NCBI GenBank assembly: GCA_020053615.1
Contig: JAGVMW010000114.1
Span: 1-33,303 of the forward strand
Length of the DNA stretch: 33,303 bases
Origin: an archaeon
Lineage (GTDB): Archaea > Nanobdellota > Nanobdellia > Woesearchaeales > GW2011-AR9
Direction of reading: 5' to 3'
Below the pieces are notes generated by a model that saw nothing but the letters and a program-made list of their open reading frames with translations, had not been told where the DNA came from and did no database searches. Made by a program: the position numbers and the translations under genes. Shown here one piece after another: positions 3,401-33,165 of the stretch (positions within the stretch are counted from its first letter, which is position 1; the number at the start of each line of letters is the position of its first letter).

Positions 3401-3476
3401 GGGAAATGGGGCTCTATGACGTTAAAAACCGATGGCTCGCTGTGCTCGCCCGAAAAAAGTGTCCTTGCGTCATACG
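3401..3476. repeat. Right arm of the inverted repeat flanking the AbiE/GrpB block
   Basis: GGGAAATGGGGCTC (3401-3414), CGTTAAAA (3420-3427) and AAAAAAGTGTCC (3453-3464) are reverse complements of the left-arm blocks. A GC-rich insert of about 25 nt sits between them. Confidence 0.75.
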
Positions 3477-3565
3477 CCTCCGCTCCTCGACTGCGGTCTG
3501 CGGTGCTCTGGGACGTTGCACTTTCGCTTCGCTCACCTCGTATAACAGCAACTGCGACGTTAAAC
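3477..3565 (+). repeat. Junction element J3: GC-rich block plus core GTATAAC...GTTAAAC
   Basis: ACGTTGCACTTTCGCTTCGCTCACCTCGTATAAC-AGCAACTGCGAC-GTTAAAC aligns with J2 and J4. It has the same orientation as all other junctions. Confidence 0.7.
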
Positions 3566-3800
3566 AAAATTTTCTTACTGCCTAGTAGGTTCACTTCGTT
3601 CCCGAAAATCCTTAAAGTTAGTGCCTTCGTTAAATCTGGTAAAACGGAAACTCAAACAATCACTTCGTGACTATTTCTAACATTGATTTAACGACTACAT
3701 TTCATTCGACCCAAATTTTTACTTACTTTAAACGACTGGGGGGAATTCCGTAACGATAACTAAACGAAAAACGAACCGAAAAGAGGGGGGGCGAGAAAAC
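3566..3800 (-). repeat. Inverted copy of the leader-type (S2) repeat, abutting the hsdR stop codon
   Basis: The reverse complement contains GTTTTCTCGCC (3790-3800), ACGGAATTCCCCCC (3738-3751), TTAAAGTAAGTAAAAA (3716-3731) and GGCAGTAAGAAAA (3570-3582). These are in the same order as 13712-13904. Confidence 0.75.
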
Positions 3801-6981: not shown

Positions 6982-7338
6982 TTATACTATTTTTAGTCTC
7001 TTTGCTTCTTTAATAAATCTTTTCTGTATATCAAGAATCATAGAGGGATTTTTACTATATTTTTCATTAATTCTATTTACATCGTCTTCGTGATCCACTA
7101 TACGACCACATTGAGAGCAAATCCACTTGGGAGTGCCCATTGGAGATGAAAAAAGAGATTCGAAACTTATCTGATTGCCATTTATATCAATAATTCTTCC
7201 ATGTGGGCAAATATTCTTCAGCTGATCAAGTTTTATTTTTCTTCTGTTTTCTAAAAATTTATTTATATCAAATTTAAAGCTAAATCTAATTGCAAAAGCA
7301 GCCACAATTATTAAAATCAGTGTTTCTAAAAATGCCAT
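6982..7338 (-). CDS. Small hypothetical protein with an N-terminal TM helix and a Cys/His cluster (CPHG...CSQCG)
   Basis: The ORF is packed between hsdS and hsdR and overlaps the hsdS end by 13 nt. It has a hydrophobic N-terminus and a zinc-ribbon-like CxH...CxxC pattern. Confidence 0.45.
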
Positions 7339-8645
7339 GCTCTAACCTCAACAGGAACTCTGATTTTTCCTGATATTAATCTTGGAAGCAGGGAATCTCG
7401 GATTTGTGAGAGTATATTTTGAGTATTGATATTATCTTCACATTTAAGCATTATTTTAATGATCGAATCTTCAAATTTTGAAATAACTTCTTTACTCGGA
7501 ACTATTATGGACATATCCAATATATCGCTGGCAGATATCCTTTGGTGACTGCCACTCGTTCCCCTGGCCATCTGTACCAACTCACCTAACACGGAATGTT
7601 CTTTAAACAGAAGATATAAGTAGCAAAAAAAGGATTTATTTGGTTTGAAAACTAAAAATTCAGTTGAGCATATTGATTTTTCTTTAGCATTTATGACTGG
7701 CCAGATTCTGGGAATTCTTGGATTCAATTTAGAGAATAAGACAGACATATTAGTGACAATAAATTTGTTGCTTAATATTTCAGAACCCCTTTGATCAAAT
7801 GATGTTTTCCCGCCATCGTATGCTTCAATACTCAAGTGACTAAATATCTCTTCAGGAGAACTAACTGGATTTATTTGTTCCTTATTTTGCGTAGCAATAT
7901 TATGAATCATTCCAATTTTCCATCCTTTCGGTATCTTTCCTAACTCAGAATCAACCATTTCTCCGCCAGTAGACTTATATGGCTTTCCTTTCTCGTTTTG
8001 AAATTCAAAGTCTATAAACCATCTTTTGAAGATTGCTCGGCTTAACTCCTCCAAAACTTTATTTATCTTCTGATTAAGTTCTATTTTTAAATCTAAATCT
8101 GAGAGGATTTTAGCGATGGCAATTTGTTCAGGAAAAGAGGGGATATTGATTTCATAGCTCATAATCGAATTTTTATCTCCACGTGGCATTTTGGTTCCTT
8201 TAGAAGTCAAAACAGTAAATTCAAAAAAGTTATCTTGAGATAAATAGTAGTAAAGATATTTGTTGTTTATGCTTGATTTTTTCCTTATAACCAATACATC
8301 ATTAGAACAACCACCGGAAAATTTTGCCAACCAAAATTTCTTAAAATATGTCCTAATATTTGAGAATAAAATATCTCCTTCTCTGAATTGAGTTACCTTC
8401 CCAACTTTAGGTAATGAAGAAGCCACAGTAATCCCGCCTTTTTCAGGCAGCATATTTTCGGTTGAAATAAAATTATTCAGATTTATTTCAACAAGACTAA
8501 TCTTTTCAGTAATATATGAAGCAGTTTCTTTTAACTCTTTAACTTCCCAATCTTCAGGAATCATTCCTATTTCAGTTTGCTTCATCTTTGATGAATGCTC
8601 AGAAAACTTGTTTTCTGTTGGTTTTAATTTAGTTTGTTGTTTCAT
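7326..8645 (-). CDS. hsdS: Type I restriction enzyme specificity subunit (two target recognition domains)
   Basis: The TRD-start motif is duplicated (IPEDWEVKELKE and IPKGWKIGMIHNI). Conserved spacer helices are present (AIAKILSDLDLKIELNQK and SQIRDSLLPRLISGKI). Confidence 0.9.
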   Translation of the reverse strand: MKQQTKLKPTENKFSEHSSKMKQTEIGMIPEDWEVKELKETASYITEKISLVEINLNNFISTENMLPEKGGITVASSLPKVGKVTQFREGDILFSNIRTYFKKFWLAKFSGGCSNDVLVIRKKSSINNKYLYYYLSQDNFFEFTVLTSKGTKMPRGDKNSIMSYEINIPSFPEQIAIAKILSDLDLKIELNQKINKVLEELSRAIFKRWFIDFEFQNEKGKPYKSTGGEMVDSELGKIPKGWKIGMIHNIATQNKEQINPVSSPEEIFSHLSIEAYDGGKTSFDQRGSEILSNKFIVTNMSVLFSKLNPRIPRIWPVINAKEKSICSTEFLVFKPNKSFFCYLYLLFKEHSVLGELVQMARGTSGSHQRISASDILDMSIIVPSKEVISKFEDSIIKIMLKCEDNINTQNILSQIRDSLLPRLISGKIRVPVEVRAWHF

Positions 8646-9007
8646 TTCTTTTTTGCCTTCTTAGCCCAAAATGTAGATTTATCTCCTGCATGAAATCGTA
8701 TCTCGCCTTCTGCGACCTCATCAGGGTTAATCTTCATCCATCCGTCACCATTTGCAGAGTCGCATTCATCACTGCCCTCAAAGGTGAAATCATAAATCAA
8801 GTCCCCATCACATTTCTTAAAATCCCCATACATTGAACCTTGCACCAATCCAAAATGAAACTCCCCACTGCCTATTTGTTCTATTCTGATGAATGCCTGC
8901 ACTTCTTCATTGACATAATCATTATCCCATTCACTCATTTTTGTAATGTGCCATGTTCCAATGAAATCTTTTTTTCCTATTTTCGTTCGTTTTATTTTAG
9001 TTTTCAT
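8642..9007 (-). CDS. Hypothetical protein embedded in the Type I R-M operon
   Basis: It has 4-nt overlaps with both neighbours. I recognise no motif. Confidence 0.55.
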   Translation of the reverse strand: MKTKIKRTKIGKKDFIGTWHITKMSEWDNDYVNEEVQAFIRIEQIGSGEFHFGLVQGSMYGDFKKCDGDLIYDFTFEGSDECDSANGDGWMKINPDEVAEGEIRFHAGDKSTFWAKKAKKK

Positions 9008-10038
9008 CCTAAATCATTAAGCCTCTTTTCTATATCTTCTTTAGATGGCAGATACTTCATGAGTTCTTTAGGAAGCAATTGCGTTATTTTATATGTAGCA
9101 ACTCCAATTGGCTTTTTGGCATCGCGCAAAGCGTACTCTACTGTTGTTCTTCTCTTTTCTTTGCAGATAATAATACCTATAGAAGCATTCTCCTCATCTA
9201 ATTTAATCCGGCTATCCAATGCCGAAAGATAGAACTGCATTTTTCCGGCATATTCCGGTTTGAACTTACCCACTTTTAATTCAATAGCGACCAAACTTCT
9301 TAATTTTCGATGATATAATAACAAATCAATAAAGTATTCTTCATCATCTACTTCCATCCTATATTGGCTTCCAACGAAACAGAAATAGTTGCCCATCTCT
9401 GATAGGAAATTTTTGATTCTACTAACAAGGGCATTTTCCATTTCTTTTTCAGAGTGTTCTTCTCCCAACTCCAAAAAATCAAAAGTATACTCGTCTTTGA
9501 CCGCTAATTTAGCTTGATTTTGATATTTAACCGGAACAGTTTGGTCAAAGTTTGTTTGGTTGAGAAGATATTTTTCATAAGACTTGTTCTCAATTTGATG
9601 GATTAGGACATCTTTAGTCCAGCCAAACTTTCTGGTCATCTTAATATAAAACTCCCGCTCTAAATCATCTTTGCATTTCTCCATAATGATTATGTTTTTT
9701 ACCCAGCTTATTTCTCGCACCAATGGTGCGAGTTTTTCACTAGCTTTGTAATTTAGGTAAAAATTTCTCATTCTCCAAAGGTTTGCTGAAGAAAAACCTC
9801 CTACGCTAGGATATTCCGCTTGTAAATCTTTAGCTAAAGTTTCTACGATAGATTTACCCCAATCCTGCTTCTCAACTATTTTCTTACCAATATCCCAATA
9901 CAAACCAATGAGTTCTTTATTTACGGCTTTGAGTGCGGAATATTGGGCTTCTCTGATTCTTTGTTTTATTTCAATAAGAAAATGCCGATAATCATCTTTG
10001 GTTAGGTTTTTATTCATGATTTTACCTCCACTTCCCAA
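9004..10038 (-). CDS. DUF1016/YhcG-family PD-(D/E)xK nuclease
   Basis: The N-terminal region reads IREAQYSALKAVNKELIGLYWDIGKKIVEKQ...GFSSANLWRMRNFY. The C-terminal FIDLLLYH...VAIELKVGKF is a D...ExK nuclease core. Confidence 0.85.
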   Translation of the reverse strand: MGSGGKIMNKNLTKDDYRHFLIEIKQRIREAQYSALKAVNKELIGLYWDIGKKIVEKQDWGKSIVETLAKDLQAEYPSVGGFSSANLWRMRNFYLNYKASEKLAPLVREISWVKNIIIMEKCKDDLEREFYIKMTRKFGWTKDVLIHQIENKSYEKYLLNQTNFDQTVPVKYQNQAKLAVKDEYTFDFLELGEEHSEKEMENALVSRIKNFLSEMGNYFCFVGSQYRMEVDDEEYFIDLLLYHRKLRSLVAIELKVGKFKPEYAGKMQFYLSALDSRIKLDEENASIGIIICKEKRRTTVEYALRDAKKPIGVATYKITQLLPKELMKYLPSKEDIEKRLNDLG

Positions 10039-10041
10039 TCT

Positions 10042-10497
10042 TCAGGAATCATTCCTTTCCAGAAGCTTTTCATGGCTCTGGAATTTTTTGGCAAAATAAT
10101 CTTTTTTTGCGCAGGCTTCCCGAATTTCATCAATATGCGCTATATGTTTGTTTTCGTTAAGCCATTCATAAAATAAATATACGCTGAAAATAGTAGAAAG
10201 CAGTTCTGATACTGTGTTAAATATCCACTTATCAATGCACCACCTGAAAAAAGTCTCTAAAGTATACCTATCAATATCCTGCGGGCTTTCTTCTTCATCT
10301 ATTGCTAGATAGTCGTTAATATACAATTCTACATTGTTAAGGTGCTTTTTTATTGTTTTTTTGCTGAGGTTCTTTCGTAATAAGTACTCTTCAAATTGGT
10401 GGAGCAGTGCGATATTTTCTTTTTGAATTTTTTCGTATTTTTCCATTGTCCTACCTTCATCCCTTCTTTCCCCAGTAATATGTATTTCTCTCATCAA
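10042..10497 (-). CDS. Hypothetical protein with weak resemblance to the tyrosine-recombinase N-terminal SAM-like (core-binding) domain
   Basis: FEEYLLRKNLSKKTIKKHLNNVELYINDYL has the pattern of a core-binding domain. The true start may be the ATG at 10446 (MEKYEKIQ). Confidence 0.4.
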   Translation of the reverse strand: MMREIHITGERRDEGRTMEKYEKIQKENIALLHQFEEYLLRKNLSKKTIKKHLNNVELYINDYLAIDEEESPQDIDRYTLETFFRWCIDKWIFNTVSELLSTIFSVYLFYEWLNENKHIAHIDEIREACAKKDYFAKKFQSHEKLLERNDS

Positions 10498-11997: not shown

Positions 11998-13521
11998 TTA
12001 TATCTTAAACCCAATCCCTTCCAGATTCTTCTTTATTTCAACATCCAACTTCTGCCCTTCTTTCATCTGTTCAGATAATTCAGCAGTTAATCGTTTCATC
12101 TTCTCTTCAAATGCTTCGTCGTCTTCTACTTCTTCTTGGATTCCAACATATCTTCCAGGAGTCAGGATAAAATTATTCTTCTCAACCTCTTCCAATTTAG
12201 CGGATTTGCAAAGGCCAGTAACATCTTCATATTTGAGCTTGTTTTCTCCTCTCCATGCGTGATAAGTGGAAGATATTTTCTTAACATCCTCATCAGTTAG
12301 TTCTCTATGTCTTCGGTCAATCATCACACCCATATTTCTGGCATCAATAAACAAGATTTGCCCTCTTCTGTCCCTAAACGAATGGTCTTTTTTATCTCGT
12401 GTAACAAACCACAAGCAGGCAGGAATTCCAGTATTGTAGAATAACTGGGCAGGTAATGCTACCATGCAATCAACAATATCAGAAGTAATCATATCCTTCC
12501 TTATTTCGCCCTCATTAGAAGTATTTGATGACATTGAGCCATTTGCCAGAACAAAGCCAGCTACGCCAGTAGGATTCAAATGATGAATAAAATGCTGAAC
12601 CCAGGCAAAATTGGCATTATTTTTTGGAGGCACTCCAAACTTCCATCTTACATCTTCCTGCAATAATTCGCCATTCCAATCTGAATCATTAAACGGAGGA
12701 TTGGCAAGAATAAAATCTGCTTTCAAATCTTTATGCTGGTCATCATGGAAAGCATCGCCCCATTTGATATTTGAGTCAATCCCTCTGATAGCCATATTCA
12801 TCTTACAAAGCTTCCATGTTGTCTGGTTGCTTTCTTGTCCATAAACCGAAATGTCTTTTATTTTTCCGCCATGAGCCTCTACAAACTTTTCGGATTGAAC
12901 AAACATTCCACCTGAACCACAGCAGGGATCAAATATTCTTCCTTTGTATGGCTCTAACATCTCAGTTAATAGTTTTACAATAGAACGAGGAGTATAGAAC
13001 TGCCCGCCTTTCTTTCCTTCAGCAGAGGCAAATTCACCTAAAAAATATTCATAGACTCTTCCAAGAATGTCTTTACTACGATTCTCTTTATCACCAAGTC
13101 CAATCGTTCCGATTAAATCAATCAATTCCCCTAATCTTTGCTTGTTCAATCCTGGACGAGCATAATTCTTTGGCAAAACTCCTTTAAGTGAGGGATTGTC
13201 TCTTTCAATAATATCCATAGCTTCATCAAGAAATTTTCCAACTTCTGGCTTTTTTGCATTGGCTTGAAGATGCTCCCATCTTGCTACTTTTGGGACAAAG
13301 AAAATTCTCCGCGAAACATACTCATCAACATCTTCTGGATCTGAATCTTTCTCTTTTTTCAGTTTTTCATAAACTTCAGTAAAAGCATCAGAAATATACT
13401 TTAAGAAAATCAAACCTAAAACAACGTGCTTATATTCAGCAGCATCCATATTGCTTCTTAGCTTATCAGCAGAAGACCATAATTTTTGTTCAAACCCTAA
13501 ATTAGCACCGTTATTTGACAT
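11998..13521 (-). CDS. hsdM: Type I R-M N6-adenine DNA methyltransferase subunit
   Basis: It has motif [12 protein letters not shown], motif [10 protein letters not shown] and an HsdM N-terminal domain ([33 protein letters not shown]). Confidence 0.95.
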
Positions 13522-13663
13522 TTTCTCGCCCCCTCTTATCTAACTCTGCTTCCATGCACTTCTCAAACTGACGAGATACTATCCAGCCTTCTTTCTTGCA
13601 TATCTCTCTATACTTATCGTAAAGTTCAGAGTTTACTTTCAATGTGATGTTTTTTGTTTTCAT
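13511..13663 (-). CDS. Ribbon-helix-helix (CopG/Arc-like) small protein RHH-1, translationally coupled to hsdM
   Basis: [41 protein letters not shown] has a beta-strand plus two-helix pattern. The ATG at 13663 is preceded by GGTGGGGTGA. The track ORF (to 13693) begins at a GTG and is probably over-extended. A paralog lies at 32630-32779. Confidence 0.7.
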
Positions 13664-13711
13664 TTCACCCCACCTGATAAGAAATACTTGCACATACTTA
13701 TAAATATTACT

Positions 13712-13904
13712 GTTTTCTCGCCACTAACTACTGAATACTGAAACTCCCACCCTACCCACCCAAAGCGTCTTCTTTTTGTAAAAAGAAGCAAAAACAAAAC
13801 GGAATTCCCCCCTACGAACGACTAAACTAATGTCTGCTTCGCAGTAATTGATGTTAAAGTAAGTAAAAACTACGGCACCTATCTGATTTTCGGCAGTAAG
13901 AAAA
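13712..13904 (+). repeat. Leader-type (S2) repeat upstream of RHH-1/hsdM; the inverted partner of 3566-3800
   Basis: It contains GTTTTCTCGCC (13712-13722), ACGGAATTCCCCCC (13799-13812), TTAAAGTAAGTAAAAA (13854-13869) and GGCAGTAAGAAAA (13892-13904). In addition, 13799-13853 is near-identical to 32898-32953. Confidence 0.8.
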
Positions 13905-16824: not shown

Positions 16825-17394
16825 GTAAATTTTTTTATTTTAAAGAGATTTCCCACAGTTCAGGCTCATGATCCAGGAACGCCAAACGCCGTTGGCGCGA
16901 TTTCCATCGCCAAAGCCACTGAAGTATTAGAATCAATTGGTTATGATCGTATTCACAAATATGAATCTGAATTAGTTAGAACTGCATTCAGAGGATTAAA
17001 GCAAACTGATGGCGTAACAGTTTATGTTTCTGAATCAGAATTAGGTAGCGTCATTCCTTTTGATATTACAGGGACAGATAGCCGATTAACTGCTGAAATC
17101 CTAAGAGATGATTATGGGATTGGCGTACGAGCAGGTTCATTCTGTACTTATGAATTCATGAGAAAAATCAAAAATATTTCTGATGAACAAGACAAAAAAA
17201 TCTTAGAAGAAATTGATAGAGGCATCACAAGAAGTATTCCCGGAGTTGTTAGGGCTAGTTTTGGCTTAGTGAATAATCAAGAAGATGTTACAAGATTAAT
17301 TTCTGCTGTTAATGAAATCGCTCACAATGGAATAGAACATTATTTCGAAATATACAACCAAGACAATACCACCGGATTGTGGACAAAGAGGTAA
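16825..17394 (+). pseudogene. 5'-truncated class V aminotransferase / cysteine desulfurase-like gene (C-terminal third only)
   Basis: The frame is open from the stop at 16822-16824. From about 16861 it reads QAHDPGTPNAVGAISIAKATEVL... The xxGTPN motif normally sits about two thirds of the way into SufS/NifS-type enzymes. The PLP-lysine region is absent, and there is no ATG before 17158. Confidence 0.65.
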
Positions 17395-17397
17395 AAA

Positions 17398-18096
17398 ATG
17401 GCAACAAACGTTAAACCTAATGAATTGAATTACGACCATTACGAAACAAAAAAATATGACGATGATATTGTTCGCTCTATTCCAGGACATGAGGAACTTC
17501 ATAGACACATAGACCAAATTATTCAAAGAGATTATATTTCAAGAGGAAAAGTTAAAGTCTTAGAATTAGGAGTTGGAACGGGATTAACAGCAGAAAGAAT
17601 ATTAGGACAAATGCCAAATGCGGAATATACAGCCGTTGATTTCTCTGAGCAAATGCTCGCAGGAGCAAGAAGACGTTTATCTCAATATAATGTAACATTT
17701 GTAAATGGTGATTATTCACAAATTGATCTTCCAAATGATAACGACCTCGTAGTTTCTATTGTAGGAATACACCACCAAAAGACCAATAAAGATAAAAAAT
17801 CTCTTTTTCAAAAAATATACCATTCCATAGCTGAAGATGGTTCTTTCATTTTTGGAGATTTGGTTACATATAAAGACAGAACAGAAGCAGCTTTAAATGA
17901 AGCAAGACATTACCATCATCTTGTTGAACACGCAGAAAATGAAGAATCATTAAGAGAATGGGCGCACCATCACAAATTCTTAAACAAACTTGCTCCTTTA
18001 GAAAACCAAGTAAAATGGCTTAGAGAAGTTGGTTTTAAAAAAGTAAAATTAGTCTACCAGAAATTCAATACTGCTTTAATCTATGCAACAAAATAA
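17398..18096 (+). CDS. Class I SAM-dependent methyltransferase
   Basis: Motif I is VLELGVGTGLTAERIL. The N-terminal YDDDIVRSIPGHEELHRHI resembles CmoA-like enzymes. VVSIVGIHH is post-motif II. Confidence 0.8.
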   Translation: MATNVKPNELNYDHYETKKYDDDIVRSIPGHEELHRHIDQIIQRDYISRGKVKVLELGVGTGLTAERILGQMPNAEYTAVDFSEQMLAGARRRLSQYNVTFVNGDYSQIDLPNDNDLVVSIVGIHHQKTNKDKKSLFQKIYHSIAEDGSFIFGDLVTYKDRTEAALNEARHYHHLVEHAENEESLREWAHHHKFLNKLAPLENQVKWLREVGFKKVKLVYQKFNTALIYATK

Positions 18097-18950: not shown

Positions 18951-19226
18951 TCTAATAGTTATTAAATAGACATTTCTTTAAATACTTTGTCCAAACCTGT
19001 CCAGTGACCAGTGGCTCTCTAAATGGAAACAACGGCTCTTAAATCCCCCTAACTTTTGTCTCTCTTCTCTCATATTCAAATAATCGAACTTTTGACGAAC
19101 TACGGTGGCACCTAAAGTCTCGGGAATGTTAAAACTTCTTCGGTTTAATGTCCTTCGGACTTAAACCTCGACCACGCTGCGCTTTCCCTACGATTTTTAT
19201 ATTCCCTTCGGTCATTAAAAATCTTC

Positions 19227-19395
19227 GGTCGGGTCGGCAAACAGGGGTTTACAGGAATTTTACTCGGCTCGTAAAATTCCCAAATGTCAATCCAGCTCTC
19301 AAAAATTTCTCAGCTCTGATTTTTGTGGGCTACCTCAAAAATCGAGGAGAAATTTTTGGAGGGATTGCCACTTCTGTAAACCCCATACGTTAAAC
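19227..19395 (+). repeat. Junction element copy A2: 166-nt structured repeat plus core CATAC-GTTAAAC
   Basis: It matches 118-283 except at 19325-19336. The closing base pair of the apical hairpin is swapped relative to copy A1 (G19325/C19336 versus C216/G227). A TTTTTATATT box at 19193-19202 lies about 25-30 nt upstream. Confidence 0.8.
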
Positions 19396-19399
19396 TCAA

Positions 19400-19434
19400 T
19401 AAAATTTCTGTTAGACTAAACTTAAGGGGTGCTT
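19400..19434. repeat. Left arm of the inverted repeat flanking the GIY-YIG/Mrr/Zn-ribbon block
   Basis: TAAAATTTCTGTTAG (19400-19414) and GGGGTGCTT (19426-19434) are exact reverse complements of 20913-20927 and 20900-20908. Confidence 0.85.
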
Positions 19435-19477
19435 ATTTTCTAATGGTTTGTAAGATAGCTTTGTAAAGGTCGAAAGA

Positions 19478-19487
19478 TTTTTATAGG
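19478..19487 (+). promoter_or_regulatory. TATA-box-like element (TTTTTATAGG)
   Basis: It lies about 25-30 nt upstream of the ATG at 19510. Confidence 0.4.
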
Positions 19488-19509
19488 TAGTTAAGAGTTA
19501 ATATATAAA

Positions 19510-20052
19510 ATGGAAATTAAACAAATATTAGATAAAATTGAATCAAATAAAAGCATACAACAATTTCCAAAAACCTCTGGAATTTATGTAATGTATGCAA
19601 AAAATAACATTATTTTTGATTTTATTACAATTAATAAAGGAGAAATAATATATATTGGCAAAAGTGAAAGTTCATTATCTGATAGAAAAACAAAACAACA
19701 TTTTAGTTCTGAAAGTACTGGTCGGTCAACTGTGAGAAGAAGTTTAGGTGCTATCCTAAAAAAAGAATTTGATATAAAATGTTTTTTAAGAGGTAAAGGA
19801 AAATCTAAAAATGATTCTAATTGTTATATATTTGATAAGGAAAGTGAAATCAGATTAACTAATTGGATGAATGAAAATATTTCCATGTCTTTTTTTGTCA
19901 CAAATAATCCAGAAGAAATAGAAGTTAGGTTAATTGCAAAATATAATCCTATTCTAAATCTAAAAGAAGCAGAACATAATTTTATAACACATATCAAAGA
20001 TTTAAGAACTAAATGTAAAGATGAAGCTGAACAAAATGGTGTCTTGAAATGA
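19510..20052 (+). CDS. GIY-YIG nuclease-domain protein
   Basis: SGIYVMYAKNN...EIIYIGKSESSLSDR fits GIY-x(n)-YIG, followed by a conserved Arg region (RSTVRRSLG). Confidence 0.6.
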   Translation: MEIKQILDKIESNKSIQQFPKTSGIYVMYAKNNIIFDFITINKGEIIYIGKSESSLSDRKTKQHFSSESTGRSTVRRSLGAILKKEFDIKCFLRGKGKSKNDSNCYIFDKESEIRLTNWMNENISMSFFVTNNPEEIEVRLIAKYNPILNLKEAEHNFITHIKDLRTKCKDEAEQNGVLK

Positions 20053-20723
20053 ATCCTAAAGAATATGAAGAATATATTGGCGAATATTTCAAAAATAAAG
20101 GGTATGATATTAAAGTAACTTCTTTTACAAATGATTATGGTGTTGATTGTTTTGCTTCAAAAGGAAAAGAAAAGATTGCAGTACAAGTAAAAATGTATGG
20201 TGAGGGTATTAGACCTGTAAATAGAAAAATGATGATGGAATTATATGGTGCAATGCACTATTTTGACTGCAATAAAGCAAAACTTGTAACAAATGGCAGA
20301 ATATTAGATGATGCCAAAGAAGTTGCAGATAAGTTAGGTATTGAAATATTATATGTCGAAGCAGTTGAAAATCATAATTCTAAAACGAAAATAGATGAAA
20401 CTTCTTTTGAATTTATCTGGGAAAGATATATCTTGCCATTAAAAGGAAAAACATTAACTAGAACTAATGGAGATACAAATATAATAAAAGATGTGGATTG
20501 GAGCGGAATAAAAAGAATAACTTCAAATGGCAACACTGCAAAAATAGATATTGAGATTTTCAAACAAGTTATTAACCACTTAAGGAAAAATGGAGAAATT
20601 TCTCGCAAAGAAATCAATGATGATTATTCAGGTAGAGCTTCATCTGGAATATGCTTAATATTATCACAAGTTCCTTTTATTCAATATCACAATAGTCCTT
20701 CAAAATTAATTTGGAGAAAATAA
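20049..20723 (+). CDS. Mrr-cat type restriction endonuclease domain protein with an unknown C-terminal domain
   Basis: YEEYIGEYFKNKGYDIKVTSFTNDYGVDCFASKGKEKIAVQVKMY fits the D...(Q/E)xK PD-(D/E)xK core of Mrr_cat. The start overlaps the upstream stop as ATGA. Confidence 0.65.
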   Translation: MNPKEYEEYIGEYFKNKGYDIKVTSFTNDYGVDCFASKGKEKIAVQVKMYGEGIRPVNRKMMMELYGAMHYFDCNKAKLVTNGRILDDAKEVADKLGIEILYVEAVENHNSKTKIDETSFEFIWERYILPLKGKTLTRTNGDTNIIKDVDWSGIKRITSNGNTAKIDIEIFKQVINHLRKNGEISRKEINDDYSGRASSGICLILSQVPFIQYHNSPSKLIWRK

Positions 20724-20724
20724 A

Positions 20725-20901
20725 ATGGTTCAAATTCCTTGTCAAAATTGCGGAAAGATGTATCCTGAAGAATGGTCTTGGTATAGCTGTAATAAATGTG
20801 ATTATAGAATTTGTCAATCTTGCATTTCCAAACATAAAGGTAAATATGGAAGCGGTTTCAAATGTAGTCAATGTACATTTGGACAAATGAAACGAAAATA
20901 A
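20725..20901 (+). CDS. 58-aa double zinc-ribbon protein (four CxxC pairs); not in the supplied ORF track
   Basis: My manual translation gives MVQIPCQNCGKMYPEEWSWYSCNKCDYRICQSCISKHKGKYGSGFKCSQCTFGQMKRK. The ATG lies 1 nt after the upstream stop. Confidence 0.5.
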   Translation: MVQIPCQNCGKMYPEEWSWYSCNKCDYRICQSCISKHKGKYGSGFKCSQCTFGQMKRK

Positions 20902-20927
20902 GCACCCCACGACTAACAGAAATTTTA
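20900..20927. repeat. Right arm of the inverted repeat flanking the GIY-YIG/Mrr/Zn-ribbon block
   Basis: AAGCACCCC (20900-20908) and CTAACAGAAATTTTA (20913-20927) pair with the left arm. The arm overlaps the Zn-ribbon stop codon. Confidence 0.85.
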
Positions 20928-20950
20928 CTTTGAATTTTTGCCTTCGACAT

Positions 20951-21000
20951 CGTTGCACTAAAATTCAATCCTAACGGAGAGTTTAACAGCGATGTTATAC
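20951..21000 (+). repeat. Junction element J7 (CGTTGCACT ... TTTAACAGCGAT-GTTATAC)
   Basis: CGTTGCACT (20951-20959) matches the S1 block of J3 and J4. AACAGCG plus GTTATAC (20985-21000) match the core. It has the same orientation as the other junctions. Confidence 0.6.
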
Positions 21001-21175
21001 TCAATATTTTAATCACCTTTTCAGGCACGCTGTCGCTTCCGTAAATCTTACGCATTGGCACCTTCGCTAAATCGGCAACGACGACAAAACGAAATTCAAT
21101 TACTTCGTAACTAAACCTAACGATGATTTAGCGGTTCACTCCATTCTCCCAAATTTTCGCTAACATAAACTAATA

Positions 21176-21238
21176 GGGGGAGTTCTAAACTTTCTGACAA
21201 CTAACTTTGACGAGGGGGGAGTTCCGTGACGACGAGAA
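21176..21238 (+). repeat. S2-type block (GGGGGAGTTCTAAAC ... GGGGGGAGTTCCGTGACGACGAGAA) next to the 3' end of the large minus-strand block
   Basis: It resembles 3738-3800 (GGGGGGAATTCCGTAACGA...GCGAGAAAAC). It is also the inverse, with one mismatch, of ACGGAATTCCCCC at 32898-32910. Confidence 0.55.
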
Positions 21239-21257
21239 TAAGTGCTTTTCAGATTGA

Positions 21258-21509
21258 CTAAATGCTTCCTTGATGCACAAGAATTACAGCACCACCAGAT
21301 ACTATAGTTCTAAGATTTCCCACCTGACGCTGGAAGATTTCACTGCCATTAAAAAATGCAGCGTGTCCGTGAGGGCTACCAATATTTGGATAACCATAGA
21401 TTACATCAGTCCTTACACCACTAGCTGAACCACGATCATTCCAATTGAACCAACCGTCGTTTGTGCGAATACTATTATTTTGGTACATATCTGAACTCTT
21501 TATGAGCAT
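21258..21509 (-). CDS. Hypothetical 83-aa Gly/Asn-rich protein
   Basis: Its start overlaps the stop of the Cas4-like gene as TAATG. I recognise no motif. Confidence 0.4.
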   Translation of the reverse strand: MLIKSSDMYQNNSIRTNDGWFNWNDRGSASGVRTDVIYGYPNIGSPHGHAAFFNGSEIFQRQVGNLRTIVSGGAVILVHQGSI

Positions 21510-22183
21510 TACTTTTTAATTATTTCGCAAGAATTCTGAACCCATTCACAAAACCCACATTCTTCAGAGGGAGCGGGAATTTCAGCTTCTAAAACTTGAA
21601 CAACTTTCTTAAAAATATTCTCGGCGTTCTTGATATTAACTTTAATCTTGATTAAATCCTTATGGAAGTCTACATCACCATTCTCATGGACTTTGCTAGG
21701 ATGGTAAAATAATAGATAAGTATAATCCTCTGTCTCATAGCCATTCTTTCGTAAGAGAAAATTGTAGATATCCATCTGGTCTTGATAATGCTCGTGCGTA
21801 TCTTCTTTTAATGGGTAGCCTCTGGTTTTATAATCTAAAACAATCAGTTTCTTTCCCTTTTGGAGCAGATTATCAATAGCTCCATGAAAGAGATTACCTT
21901 TTTTATCAGTCCATGGTATTCCTTTGAAATTGCTTCTCCAAACTTTGAGGAGTTCTTCATTGTCAAAGAGCTTTACTTCACCTTTTAATTGTTGAAGTTC
22001 TGGAGGCAATTCTCCTCTTTTCATAAAGCGGTCAAAATGTTCTTTGAGAATTTTATCCATTCCACTCGGAAGAGATGGGAAAATGGAATCTGGACGTTTA
22101 ATGTTCTTGTTTAAAGCAAGCCAGAAACATCTAGGGCAATCTTTCAGTAAGCTTAGGCTTGATGGGCTGAATTTGTAGGTCAT
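21509..22183 (-). CDS. Cas4/RecB-like PD-(D/E)xK nuclease with a Cys cluster
   Basis: Motifs are GAIDNL, VLDYKT and QDQMDIY (QxxxY). Cysteines occur at CPRC (N-terminal) and CGFCEWVQNSC (C-terminal), as in Fe-S Cas4/AddB-type nucleases. Confidence 0.75.
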   Translation of the reverse strand: MTYKFSPSSLSLLKDCPRCFWLALNKNIKRPDSIFPSLPSGMDKILKEHFDRFMKRGELPPELQQLKGEVKLFDNEELLKVWRSNFKGIPWTDKKGNLFHGAIDNLLQKGKKLIVLDYKTRGYPLKEDTHEHYQDQMDIYNFLLRKNGYETEDYTYLLFYHPSKVHENGDVDFHKDLIKIKVNIKNAENIFKKVVQVLEAEIPAPSEECGFCEWVQNSCEIIKK

Positions 22184-22184
22184 T

Positions 22185-31900: not shown

Positions 31901-32672
31901 GTTTATATAAATCCCAATATGCCTGCATAAATTTTCTATCTTTATTCAGCCATTCTTTCTTAGCTATAAAATAAATGAACATAATTCTATTCATAAATTG
32001 TAATGTAAATTCATGGGCTATTTTCGGGTCTACCTTCTGTTTTTTGAGTTCTTTTCTCACCACTAAAAATAGTCTTTGATAATCCTCAAAAAATTTCTTA
32101 GTAACTTTCTGAACATCAAACGCCTCTTTCCATAACCGCCAGAGTTCTCGCCATGTTTTCTTTTGGTCTTCCAGAAATATATTGCAAATTATCTCAATAT
32201 CTGTATAATAAAGCTCATCTTTTTTCAATATTAATGTGGTTGTTTTAAGTTTATGTTTTCCTACCTCCTGCTTTTCGTAATCTGGAAACACAATATGTAT
32301 CTCTTTATAATCGATTGTAATAATTAAGAGACATCGCGTGTACATTTCAGCGAATTTGTTTGCGATATATCGCATAAGAGGCTTACTAAGAGAGTTAGTT
32401 TCAATTAAGAAGACATTGAGTTTATCATAACTCATAACTGTGTAAATTGTTTTAATTTTGTCTCGTTCTTCACTGGCAAAAGAAAATTCTTTTATCTTTT
32501 TAACATAAGATGAATCAAAAATTGCTTCTTTTGGATAATTTAGACTCTTAAACAAACCATATATATCCTCTGAATTCTTTATGAAAGAGATATAATCTTT
32601 AACTTTCTTTCGGAGATCTGAATTATTATTCACTTTTCCCGCCCCCTCTTCTCTAACTCTGCTTCCATGCAT
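28935..32672 (-). CDS. Large N6-adenine DNA methyltransferase, Eco57I/type IIG- or PglX-like
   Basis: Motif I is IVDPACGSGAFLVGML and motif IV is VIGNPPYV, with a coiled-coil insert between them and a long C-terminal region. I could not identify a clear N-terminal nuclease motif. The more likely start is the GTG at 32633, in a GTGA overlap with the RHH-2 stop, rather than the ATG at 32672. Confidence 0.8.
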   Translation of the reverse strand: MHGSRVREEGAGKVNNNSDLRKKVKDYISFIKNSEDIYGLFKSLNYPKEAIFDSSYVKKIKEFSFASEERDKIKTIYTVMSYDKLNVFLIETNSLSKPLMRYIANKFAEMYTRCLLIITIDYKEIHIVFPDYEKQEVGKHKLKTTTLILKKDELYYTDIEIICNIFLEDQKKTWRELWRLWKEAFDVQKVTKKFFEDYQRLFLVVRKELKKQKVDPKIAHEFTLQFMNRIMFIYFIAKKEWLNKDRKFMQAYWDLYKRISKYGNNEFYDKWLKPLFFEAFNNKSSYHPELPEEVNKILSNSPYLNGGLFTKKIGLDDLKINISDNLFKEIFDFFESYNFTIKEDSVLDVEVSVDPQMIGYVYESLANITEDVYENEEDLRGDWGIFYTAKVEVDFMCRRSLVEYLGKNLEIPKEELYEFVFDEDKEKIEKKFNQRKCWGKIEEALDNLSIVDPACGSGAFLVGMLNVLVELYKIVFKHIGSSLSDFQLKYRIIQRSLYGVDVMPWAIHASELRLWLQLIVETQFKDEELRKHPLLPNLNMNLRVGDSLVQEIGGISFNVRSNNLKPHLKKKLEELKNEKRRYFENSPSAKYKTPEEFKVQEVRLFEEILNERIESLETDIQVLTHSSSKKEKQTGLFGASVNIDAENIKKEKKNLIELENRIKECADEIEKLKKVKELLKDPAKKPFVWDIDFAEVFADEGGFDIVIGNPPYVRQEKIAPPNKLKEEVTLEDRRGYKEKLIKSVQNRFPVVIDWDKKSDLYVYFYFHGLSLLNSGGVFCFITSNSWLDVGYGKGLQEFLLRYSHVIGIYDNQAKRSFEHADVNTIIALLGAPVIGKQKSLFEYGAEYNGNGKATYSGFSQTARFVMFKKPFEEVVNAANLVKIEKAEKILKTNEFRVYPINQEDLLEDGWEYPEGYENGRFGKGSYEGNKWGSKFLRSPDIVFSILSKKDVGVLKELYGKVDTGLYSGINDFFYLNEEQVKKWKIETDYLIPLIKSPQDVKCISLNKYINKKFVFICNESKNSLKSKDHNNALKYIEWGERQETKEKGKVKAGIPWPEVPTVVNRKPGWWSISNVEFTNCFMLYGYNDRFIHPYSEKKALSDRRFHMIKLKKEVNPKYFSLLLNSTFTALFIEIYGRSNLGQGALDLATMDANKIPMVSLQKLNFSKYNINKFFTREVKSIFEELGIDPTKPIREQEPKPLPDRAELDNIIFDELGLTKEERKEVYWAVCELVQQRLNKATSLKK

Positions 32673-32779
32673 TTCTCAAACTGACGAGAAACTATCCAGC
32701 CTTCTTTTTTGCATAACTCCCTATAGGTATCATACAATTTTGAATTAACTTTCAAAGTGATATTCTTACTCTCTTCCAT
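32630..32779 (-). CDS. Ribbon-helix-helix small protein RHH-2, a paralog of 13511-13663; not in the supplied ORF track
   Basis: My manual translation gives [49 protein letters not shown]. In my alignment 40 of 44 core residues are identical to RHH-1. The gene is preceded by GAGGGAATGA. Confidence 0.7.
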   Translation of the reverse strand: MEESKNITLKVNSKLYDTYRELCKKEGWIVSRQFEKCMEAELEKRGREK

Positions 32780-32849
32780 TATCATTCCCTCTAACTAGAT
32801 TAATAATAAATAACTGCACATACTTATAAAGATTACTATGCTGAAACTC

Positions 32850-32953
32850 TTCTCGCCCCCAACGACTTAAACTGAACTCCCTACTAACAACAAAACTACG
32901 GAATTCCCCCACGACGAACGACTAAAATAATGTCTGCTTCGCAGTAATTGATT
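32850..32953 (+). repeat. Leader-type (S2) repeat upstream of RHH-2 and the methyltransferase
   Basis: TTCTCGCCCCC (32850-32860) and ACGGAATTCCCCC...CGAACGACTAAAATAATGTCTGCTTCGCAGTAATTGAT (32898-32953) are near-identical to 13799-13853. Confidence 0.8.
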
Positions 32954-33060
32954 GATGATTCATTAAAAAACTACGGTAGCCCCTAACTCGCTCAGAAACA
33001 AAGTTTCTGGCGTGCAAGAAAAATCGCTGTTTTTCTTCGCATCTCAGCGCTGAAAAAACT

Positions 33061-33165
33061 CTGCGCACTGCGGTGCTTGCCCCGCTGCGCTCTCACTCCA
33101 TTTTTATGTCCTGCGGGACTAAAAATTCCGTTCGGGTCGAGAAACAGCGCACGCATATGTTATAT
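33061..33165 (+). repeat. Junction element J9 (GC-rich block, CGGGTCGAGAAACAGCG, core CATAT-GTTATAT)
   Basis: GCGCTCTCACTCCATTTTTATGTCCTGCGGGACTAAAAATTCCGTTCGGGTCGAG aligns with 19176-19236. The core lies at 33154-33165. Confidence 0.7.

Follow-up and report, generated by a model that had tools for sequence, protein, structure and literature searches.

Enzymes of the DpnI type, which act in type IV restriction, join a PD-(D/E)XK nuclease to a C-terminal winged helix, and winged helices are found in combination with GIY-YIG nucleases as well (PMC11037411). In this work, we analyzed a three-gene nuclease cassette located within the archaeal metagenome contig JAGVMW010000114.1, taken over its full length of 33,303 nucleotides (nt) (the whole stretch is further referred to as the window), which encodes a GIY-YIG nuclease (open reading frame ORF1), an Mrr-type nuclease with an additional C-terminal domain (ORF2) and a small cysteine-rich protein (ORF3). 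We lean, with modest confidence, towards the explanation that this cassette is a mobile, restriction-like module without a methyltransferase, whose two different nucleases would work as one enzyme.

Two other groups of described enzymes are relevant here. In the Mrr protein of Escherichia coli, an N-terminal winged helix (Mrr_N) precedes the catalytic domain. BtsI, BsrDI and BbvCI are heterodimeric type II enzymes, composed of two polypeptides, each with a catalytic centre, and accompanied by cognate methyltransferases; the small subunit of these heterodimeric restriction enzymes is active only together with the large, recognition subunit. To our knowledge, there is no known pairing of a GIY-YIG and an Mrr-type nuclease as separate subunits, and no named system of this composition was found in the literature, the coverage of which was incomplete, so that its absence there is not a proof.

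The ORF2 protein resembles the DpnI-type enzymes in the order of its parts, i.e., an N-terminal nuclease followed by a C-terminal winged helix, and in having no cognate methyltransferase. However, its nuclease is an Mrr_cat domain (PD-QxK), the winged helix is preceded by an SH3-like barrel and lacks specific similarity to that of DpnI, and a GIY-YIG partner is either encoded by a separate gene (in 43 out of the 76 ORF2-family genome loci with enough upstream sequence) or fused. With E. coli Mrr, it shares the Mrr_cat domain with the D...QxK motif and, again, the lack of a methyltransferase, but in this 224-amino acid (aa) protein the catalytic domain comes first, the winged helix is C-terminal, no match to Mrr_N was obtained, and a second nuclease is encoded alongside. 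Because of the reversed domain order and the missing Mrr_N, ORF2 stands outside the E. coli Mrr family in the strict sense. As in BtsI, BsrDI and BbvCI, the proposed pair would consist of two different polypeptides with one catalytic centre each, whereas those are type II enzymes with methyltransferases.

More distant similarities were also noted. Residues 1-117 of ORF2 match the Mrr-like domains of PDC-S02 (E = 5e-11) and of ZorD of the Zorya system (E = 7.5e-10); however, PDC-S02 proteins are 330-390 aa long with a C-terminal Mrr-like domain, and ZorD is a helicase of about 1100 aa. These two Mrr domains were the only PADLOC v2 matches of ORF2, while ORF1, ORF3 and the usual GIY-YIG partner of the family (see below) had none. 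The best full-length structural match of ORF2 was AF1548 (Protein Data Bank, PDB, entry 1Y88; Foldseek E = 4e-6), an archaeal protein which likewise has an Mrr-like fold and a C-terminal extra part, but the identity is 13%, the root-mean-square deviation is 11.7 Å over 221 columns, and the domain arrangement is different.

As the preliminary description of the cassette, made from the sequence alone, had claimed, no methyltransferase is encoded inside it (ORF list and Pfam analysis of the three genes); moreover, none was found in the second copy of the cassette (loci L089 and L090) or as a conserved neighbour across 78 loci of the family, unlike in a classical type II restriction-modification (R-M) system with its adjacent cognate methyltransferase. 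The features of homing endonuclease genes are missing too, as searches for intron RNA were negative, the cassette is flanked by non-coding repeats, and ORF1 has no appended DNA-binding domain. We conclude that the cassette belongs neither to the homing endonuclease genes nor to the transposons or the classical R-M systems; the best reading is that the pair would work like a type IV or a heterodimeric restriction enzyme.

The GIY-YIG and Mrr-type nuclease pair

The first 100 aa of ORF2 constitute the Mrr_cat domain (PF04471, Pfam E = 5e-21). A homologue search performed with this protein gave 626 matches (about 221-261 aa in length among the 120 matches listed), and 80 genome loci of the family were recovered, mostly from Bacteroidota, but also from Ignavibacteria, Calditrichia, Acidobacteriota, Actinomycetota, Cloacimonadota, Clostridia and Woesearchaeota. 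Within the family, E7, D29, D33 and Q46 are invariant and K48 is nearly invariant, and the D...QxK motif is intact. The fold of the nuclease domain matches AF1548, the catalytic domains of MspJI and AspBHI (both modification-dependent enzymes), Hjc and EndoMS.

The remainder of ORF2, presented in the preliminary description as an unknown domain, belongs to no Pfam family, and a sequence search of the PDB gave nothing significant either for the whole protein or for this domain alone. It has nevertheless gained a predicted structure, since its 113 C-terminal residues were modelled as a helix, a small SH3/KOW-like barrel and a winged helix, with an AlphaFold 2 (AF2) predicted local distance difference test (pLDDT) score of 90 (86 for the full-length protein). 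An exhaustive profile search with the C-terminal domain yielded 232 representative clusters (at 50% identity, among 1.84 billion proteins). The domain is also fused to a glycosylase of the uracil-DNA glycosylase (UDG) family (P0203) and, in P0183, follows an AAA ATPase that has a degenerate Mrr region. Both fusions fit a DNA-targeting role and suggest that the SH3-like and winged-helix domain is a portable DNA-targeting module.

ORF1 was assigned by Pfam to GIY_YIG_2 (PF20815, E = 3.5e-25). It carries the GIY and YIG motifs together with the catalytic Arg, His/Tyr, Glu and Asn positions, and at least 90% of its 33 homologues retain G24, Y26, Y48, G50, R59, H64, R76, R77, E138 and N150. The 180-aa protein is a bare catalytic domain, in which Pfam detects no DNA-binding extension. 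More distant members of the ORF1 subfamily are encoded alone or beside type III R-M genes.

The separate gene found in the 43 loci mentioned above, i.e., the usual partner of ORF2, codes for a conserved protein of about 160 aa. In 40 of these 43 loci it lies upstream of ORF2 on the same strand (median distance to the ORF2 start, 494 nt), and in most of the 40 it abuts or overlaps this start. The usual partner is a GIY-YIG protein as well, as indicated by a match to PF01541 in locus L014 (E = 7e-5), weak matches to PF20815 and the motifs GVY, VVYIGKA, GHWGGR and PFANL. ORF1 does not belong to the family of the usual partners; BLASTP showed no link between them and placed ORF1 outside their cluster, and the relationship is a distant homology, detected only by profile-profile comparison (hhalign against the ORF1 family: probability 89.5%, E = 2e-6). 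Since ORF1 is unlike the usual partner and yet is paired with ORF2, the GIY-YIG and Mrr pairing has survived a gene replacement, in which a distant relative took the place of the family's usual GIY-YIG gene.

Fusion proteins provide further evidence of this pairing. The usual partner type is joined to Mrr_cat and the C-terminal domain in P0188 (E = 1e-38 against the partner profile) and P0235 (E = 4e-58), whereas GIY_YIG_2 either follows these domains (P0194: Mrr_cat, C-terminal domain, GIY_YIG_2) or precedes them (P0190: GIY_YIG_2, Mrr_cat, C-terminal domain), so both domain orders are represented. In P0229 and P0225, the C-terminal domain is followed by GIY_YIG_2 with no Mrr_cat match, and these two proteins may be N-terminally truncated. 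Such fusions can be regarded as Rosetta-stone evidence that the two proteins act together, and, as both GIY-YIG types are fused to the ORF2 architecture, the functional core would be the GIY-YIG and Mrr-cat pair.

Within the bacterial part of the family, a WYL-WCX regulator is encoded upstream in 14 loci, and the immediate neighbours of family members include type I and type IV restriction genes, PbeA, Mokosh and Druantia genes, and integrases. We also considered that the family might be virus- or plasmid-borne, and this was ruled out, as IMG/VR contained only distant matches confined to Mrr_cat, and PLSDB contained no full-length member.

Organization and mobility of the cassette

The coordinates of the particular features are presented in Table 1. 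The coupling of the three genes proposed in the preliminary description, i.e., an ATGA overlap between ORF1 and ORF2 followed by a 1-nt gap (position 20724) before ORF3, was found to be exact. The TATA-like box proposed as the shared promoter is present as well: the box preceding ORF1 has the motif and the spacing seen at other first genes in the window, and it is kept in loci L091-L093. This spacing would result in a leaderless or near-leaderless transcript, and a run of five T residues in the 3' tail may be a terminator. The G+C content of the cassette is 27% vs. 38-40% in the flanks. The box, which resembles a B recognition element (BRE) with a TATA box, fits an archaeal host (DPANN, Woesearchaeota). 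We infer a DPANN host from other matches as well, because the product of a methyltransferase gene of the window (positions 17398-18096) shares at least 90% identity with a protein from a metagenome-assembled genome (MAG) of Candidatus Woesearchaeota, because this gene belongs to a 1.26-kb block (16840-18096) with 94% identity to a contig of the same MAG, and because the closest genome-database relative of ORF2 comes from Woesearchaeota.

Table 1. Features of the nuclease cassette and of its borders in the window (dN/dS, ratio of nonsynonymous to synonymous substitution rates).
Feature	Position	Strand	Description	Basis
Repeat A	19227-19400	+	Structured intergenic repeat of about 155-175 nt, left boundary of the hotspot; context, outside the cassette	
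Left inverted arm	19400-19451		Exact blocks 19400-19414 and 19426-19437, with a weaker extension	
BRE/TATA-like promoter box CGAAAG-ATTTTTATAGG	19471-19487	+	About 29 nt upstream of the ORF1 ATG	
ORF1	19510-20052	+	180 aa, GIY-YIG nuclease, GIY_YIG_2 subfamily	Pfam, conserved residues, dN/dS
ORF2	20049-20723	+	224 aa; Mrr_cat PD-QxK nuclease (aa 1-100), SH3-like barrel and winged helix (aa ~118-224)	Pfam, AF2
ORF3	20725-20901	+	58 aa, 8 Cys (4 x CxxC), probably two zinc ions	dN/dS, homologues
3' tail moving with the cassette	20902-20969	+	Right inverted arm 20897-20927, T5 run 20935-20939	L089/L090 homology

The whole cassette, with all three genes, recurs in L089/L090 at 90% DNA identity over window positions 19505-20969. 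This homology starts 5 nt upstream of the ORF1 ATG and ends 68 nt past the ORF3 stop, and the 3' tail is 76% identical between the two copies. The flanks of L089/L090 are different and encode a Toprim protein, an ISL3 fragment, a SurA-like protein, DUF87 and PhoH. Between the window and L089, dN/dS amounts to 0.19 for ORF1, 0.18 for ORF2 and 0.075 for ORF3, which points to purifying selection on all three ORFs. A decayed copy, with ORF1 at 77% identity and ORF2 shortened to 80 aa, is present in L091-L093. It is worth mentioning that in L091 the truncated ORF2 is followed by a different, 40-aa ORF (L091:1425-1547) with a CxxC...CxxC pattern (MENQKFRCNSCGEKF...CKKCWHHNIL), i.e., a small zinc-ribbon gene is again located at the position of ORF3.

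The interval occupied by the cassette was also found with another content. Locus L109 is syntenic with the window on both sides, i.e., along 19079-19395 (including repeat A) and 21539-22184 (a Cas4-like gene), with flanks that are 86-87% identical, whereas window positions 19396-21538 and L109:3452-6087 carry different cargo, which in L109 comprises two unrelated genes (for proteins of 225 aa and 427 aa) in place of the nuclease cassette. Because of this synteny on both sides of a different cargo, the segment from repeat A to the Cas4-like gene is considered a variable hotspot. The window has the character of a defence island, with genes of type I R-M and type IIG systems, an HKD-SNF2 helicase, a Cas4-like nuclease, an IS1182 transposase, a nucleotidyltransferase-related pair, a Bro-N/PDC-S13 gene and an M78-peptidase-like gene. 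In such a setting, the suggestion that the cassette is a compact defence or mobile module seems reasonable.

The preliminary description assigned GIY-YIG, Mrr-cat and four-CxxC zinc-ribbon domains to the three proteins. The former two are recognized by Pfam and the four CxxC pairs of ORF3 are present, but the matches of this protein to Pfam zinc fingers are only sub-threshold; it probably binds two zinc ions. Its low dN/dS (0.15 when compared with L001, in addition to the value for L089 given above) and the location of 16 out of 23 differences at third codon positions show that ORF3 is a real coding gene. Conservation in relatives, on which the status of this small ORF had been made dependent, was also observed, since the homologues P0121-P0124, encoded in unrelated neighbourhoods, are about 70% identical and keep all 8 Cys.

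ORF3 stands beside ORF2 only in the window, in L089/L090 and in L001-L003; in the latter, ORF2 is 79% identical and the usual partner is encoded upstream. A scan for ORFs with four CxxC pairs found none in 75 out of 75 bacterial and Woesearchaeota genome loci. A core role of ORF3 was ruled out on the grounds of its absence from these 75 loci and the unrelated neighbourhoods of its homologues, and ORF3, although a conserved coding gene, appears to be an accessory specific to a narrow archaeal clade. The three genes thus recur as a unit in L089/L090 and, with a different GIY-YIG gene, in L001-L003, as anticipated, whereas the conserved core of the wider family, as seen from the partner linkage and the fusions, comprises two genes.

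The exact inverted arms that had been reported to enclose the genes are real and nested, but they turned out to be specific to the copy in the window. The outer pair (19400-19414 with 20913-20927) consists of 15 nt and the inner one (19426-19437 with 20897-20908) of 12 nt, both exact, and the inner pair extends to 26 nt at 81%. For the 12-mer, 0.05 chance matches are expected in the window, and 0.56 for the 15-mer, with 2 mismatches permitted; the gapped alignment of the arms scored 64.5 vs. 37 +/- 6 (maximum 56) for shuffled sequences. The left arm immediately follows repeat A and precedes the promoter, whereas the right arm is part of the transcript, within its 3' tail; the former looks like a local inverted copy, of about 50 nt, of the cassette's own 3' end. 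Of the two arms, L089/L090 have only a diverged version of the right one, the left arm is present neither in L089/L090 nor in L091, and the arm motif was found in no other fetched locus. There is no transposase inside the cassette and no evident direct repeat or target-site duplication at the arm borders.

Three interpretations of the arms were rejected. Conserved terminal repeats of a mobile element were ruled out by the lack of the left arm in L089/L090 and L091 and of the motif in any other locus, and a transposon or insertion sequence with terminal inverted repeats by the restriction of the arms to the window copy together with the lack of a transposase and of a duplication. The nested arms and the G+C-richer non-coding flanks were also reminiscent of a large RNA that carries genes in a loop, such as a group I or group II intron; this was rejected because the left arm lies upstream of the promoter and because searches of Rfam, at gathering and at permissive thresholds, gave nothing relevant and no tRNAs were found. 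As the arms are missing from the other copies, we treat them as a feature of this particular insertion, i.e., a scar or a recently formed terminal repeat, and not as a defining part of the module.

Function of the nuclease pair and competing explanations

The explanation favoured here builds on the gene structure, the conservation, the catalytic motifs, the linkage and fusions, the mobility and the defence-island context of the cassette. In the proposed mechanism, the C-terminal SH3-like and winged-helix module of ORF2 would recognize DNA, its Mrr-type PD-QxK site would serve as one catalytic centre, and the GIY-YIG site of ORF1 as the second. Acting together, presumably as a complex in which the two strands are divided between the subunits, ORF1 and ORF2 would make a double-strand break in DNA that is not tolerated by the host, which may confer protection against viruses. 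The most plausible target specificity would be that for DNA with a foreign modification, as in type IV restriction. The points suggesting such modification dependence are the lack of a methylase, the architecture of the DpnI type (PMC11037411) and the nuclease fold similar to those of MspJI and AspBHI. ORF3 would be a clade-specific accessory, possibly a regulator, not needed by the wider family.

Several observations weigh against a restriction-like function of the pair. The Foldseek matches of the C-terminal domain are only partial, covering its winged-helix part (probability 0.97, E ~0.1), no known modification reader matches the domain significantly, and DpnI is outside its Foldseek top 50. 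PADLOC v2 gave no match to a named system beyond the generic Mrr domain. The usual partner is absent in 33 of the 76 loci, many of the bacterial neighbours are housekeeping genes, and the defence-gene neighbours were noted without a control set. Finally, some of the fusions were predicted from metagenomic sequences and might reflect sequencing artefacts, which is unlikely given six independent cases in two domain orders.

Three other explanations were considered, each of which we find less well supported because of the points raised against it. GIY-YIG is the classical fold of homing endonucleases, and the cassette might accordingly be a selfish element, whose homing-type nuclease cuts empty sites and thereby spreads the cassette, the arms being its ends. 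The 90% identity in unrelated contexts, the low G+C content, the hotspot with alternative cargo and the exact arms, similar to terminal inverted repeats, in the window speak for this idea. We regard it as unlikely, though, as there is no intron, intein or conserved target gene, the Rfam search was empty and ORF1 has no DNA-binding extension; furthermore, the arms are missing in other copies, no target-site duplication is evident, no transposase is present within the cassette, and the wider ORF2 family is maintained in different phyla as a stable operon of two genes and includes fusions, which suggests that the pair has a cellular function. A toxin-antitoxin or abortive-infection module, in which a nuclease toxin is checked by its partner or by the zinc protein and released upon infection, would agree with the small and tight operon, the lack of a methyltransferase, the defence island and the tiny third gene in this clade. 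Such a module seems very improbable, given that both larger proteins keep full catalytic motifs and neither looks like an inhibitor, that fusions into one polypeptide do not fit a pair of this kind, and that ORF3 is missing at almost all family loci and also occurs alone in other contexts.

It should also be considered that the pair could serve DNA repair or recombination, and not defence, as a structure- or lesion-specific dual-incision nuclease. Dual incision can be performed by a GIY-YIG domain together with a second nuclease, as in UvrC, and the similarity of the ORF2 nuclease domain to Hjc resolvases and EndoMS, the fusion of the C-terminal domain to a UDG-family glycosylase and the location of some loci among housekeeping genes are in line with such a role. 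However, the family has few distinct members (the 232 clusters mentioned above), the cassette itself changes its context and is located in a defence island, at a variable hotspot, family members have WYL regulators, restriction genes and integrases encoded nearby, and the cassette is lost or decayed in the close relatives L091-L093, all of which leaves a repair pair with as little probability as the toxin-antitoxin module.

Returning to the restriction-like module, the window appears to contain a mobile archaeal member of the ORF2 family with a swapped GIY-YIG gene and an extra zinc protein. If it is an active restriction enzyme, it would represent an unnamed family present in several phyla, from Bacteroidota to DPANN archaea, which obligately combines two unrelated nuclease folds, separate or fused, with an unclassified DNA-binding module and no methylase. 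The replacement of the GIY-YIG gene, together with the fusions, makes an unusually clean comparative argument for a two-subunit nuclease, and enzymes of this kind are useful as sources of strand-specific nickases and DNA-modification readers. In addition, these data provide an example of a defence gene cassette that occupies two unrelated genomic contexts, in this case in the little-studied Woesearchaeota. At the same time, it is one more candidate among many nuclease-based defence systems, and not a new kind of biology.

Repeats and further genes of the defence island

A second copy of repeat A is located at positions 118-291 of the window (94% identity to 19227-19400), and 15 more copies, with 93-98% identity and unrelated flanks, were found in other metagenome contigs (L094-L107 and L109; e.g., L100:170-310). 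The predicted three-way structure of this repeat, with 56 base pairs, is almost invariant, and a few changes are compensatory; the long hairpin has an apical loop with two alternative states, and the inner hairpin is inverted in L106. Repeat A matches no Rfam family and could be a miniature inverted-repeat transposable element (MITE), a non-coding RNA or a recombination site. When the window is compared with L109, the variable cargo starts right after the 3' end of repeat A, where synteny stops at position 19395.

These data allow for a combined hypothesis, according to which the cassette is interchangeable cargo of a Woesearchaeota exchange hotspot bordered on the left by repeat A, with the arms as a scar of its capture, and, separately, the pair is a new and widespread two-nuclease immune system. 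Taken as a whole, this combination is unlikely; if true, it would mean integron-like or repeat-guided shuffling of defence genes in DPANN archaea.

Another repeat, designated E (74-83% identity), is present at window positions 21033-21180, i.e., downstream of the cassette, and 3657-3748, as well as in L096:3529-3673, L107:209-302 and L110:7596-7720; in L107, it is located only about 70 nt after a partial repeat A. Window positions 33042-33149 and 3466-3551 match other repeat families.

Within the 94%-identical block mentioned above, the MAG part that matches window positions 16840-17397 (L110:9443-9997) is the 3' part of an aminotransferase gene. The corresponding segment of the window contains no ORF of at least 90 aa and resembles what is left of a truncated gene, located at the island's edge.

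Two further observations concern the R-M genes of the window. An exact 27-nt direct repeat (8542-8568 and 10030-10056) is located at the 5' ends of hsdS (7326-8645, minus strand) and of the ORF 9004-10038 (minus strand), and type I specificity genes could be shuffled through it. Two paralogous small ORFs, 13511-13693 and 32630-32785 (both on the minus strand; 60 and 51 aa as called), have a common protein sequence and lie inside a repeat (13521-13900 and 32634-33000). By eye only, their products are ribbon-helix-helix-like. Both overlap the starts of methyltransferase genes, i.e., hsdM and the gene of the type IIG enzyme, respectively, and they may encode controller proteins common to the two systems.

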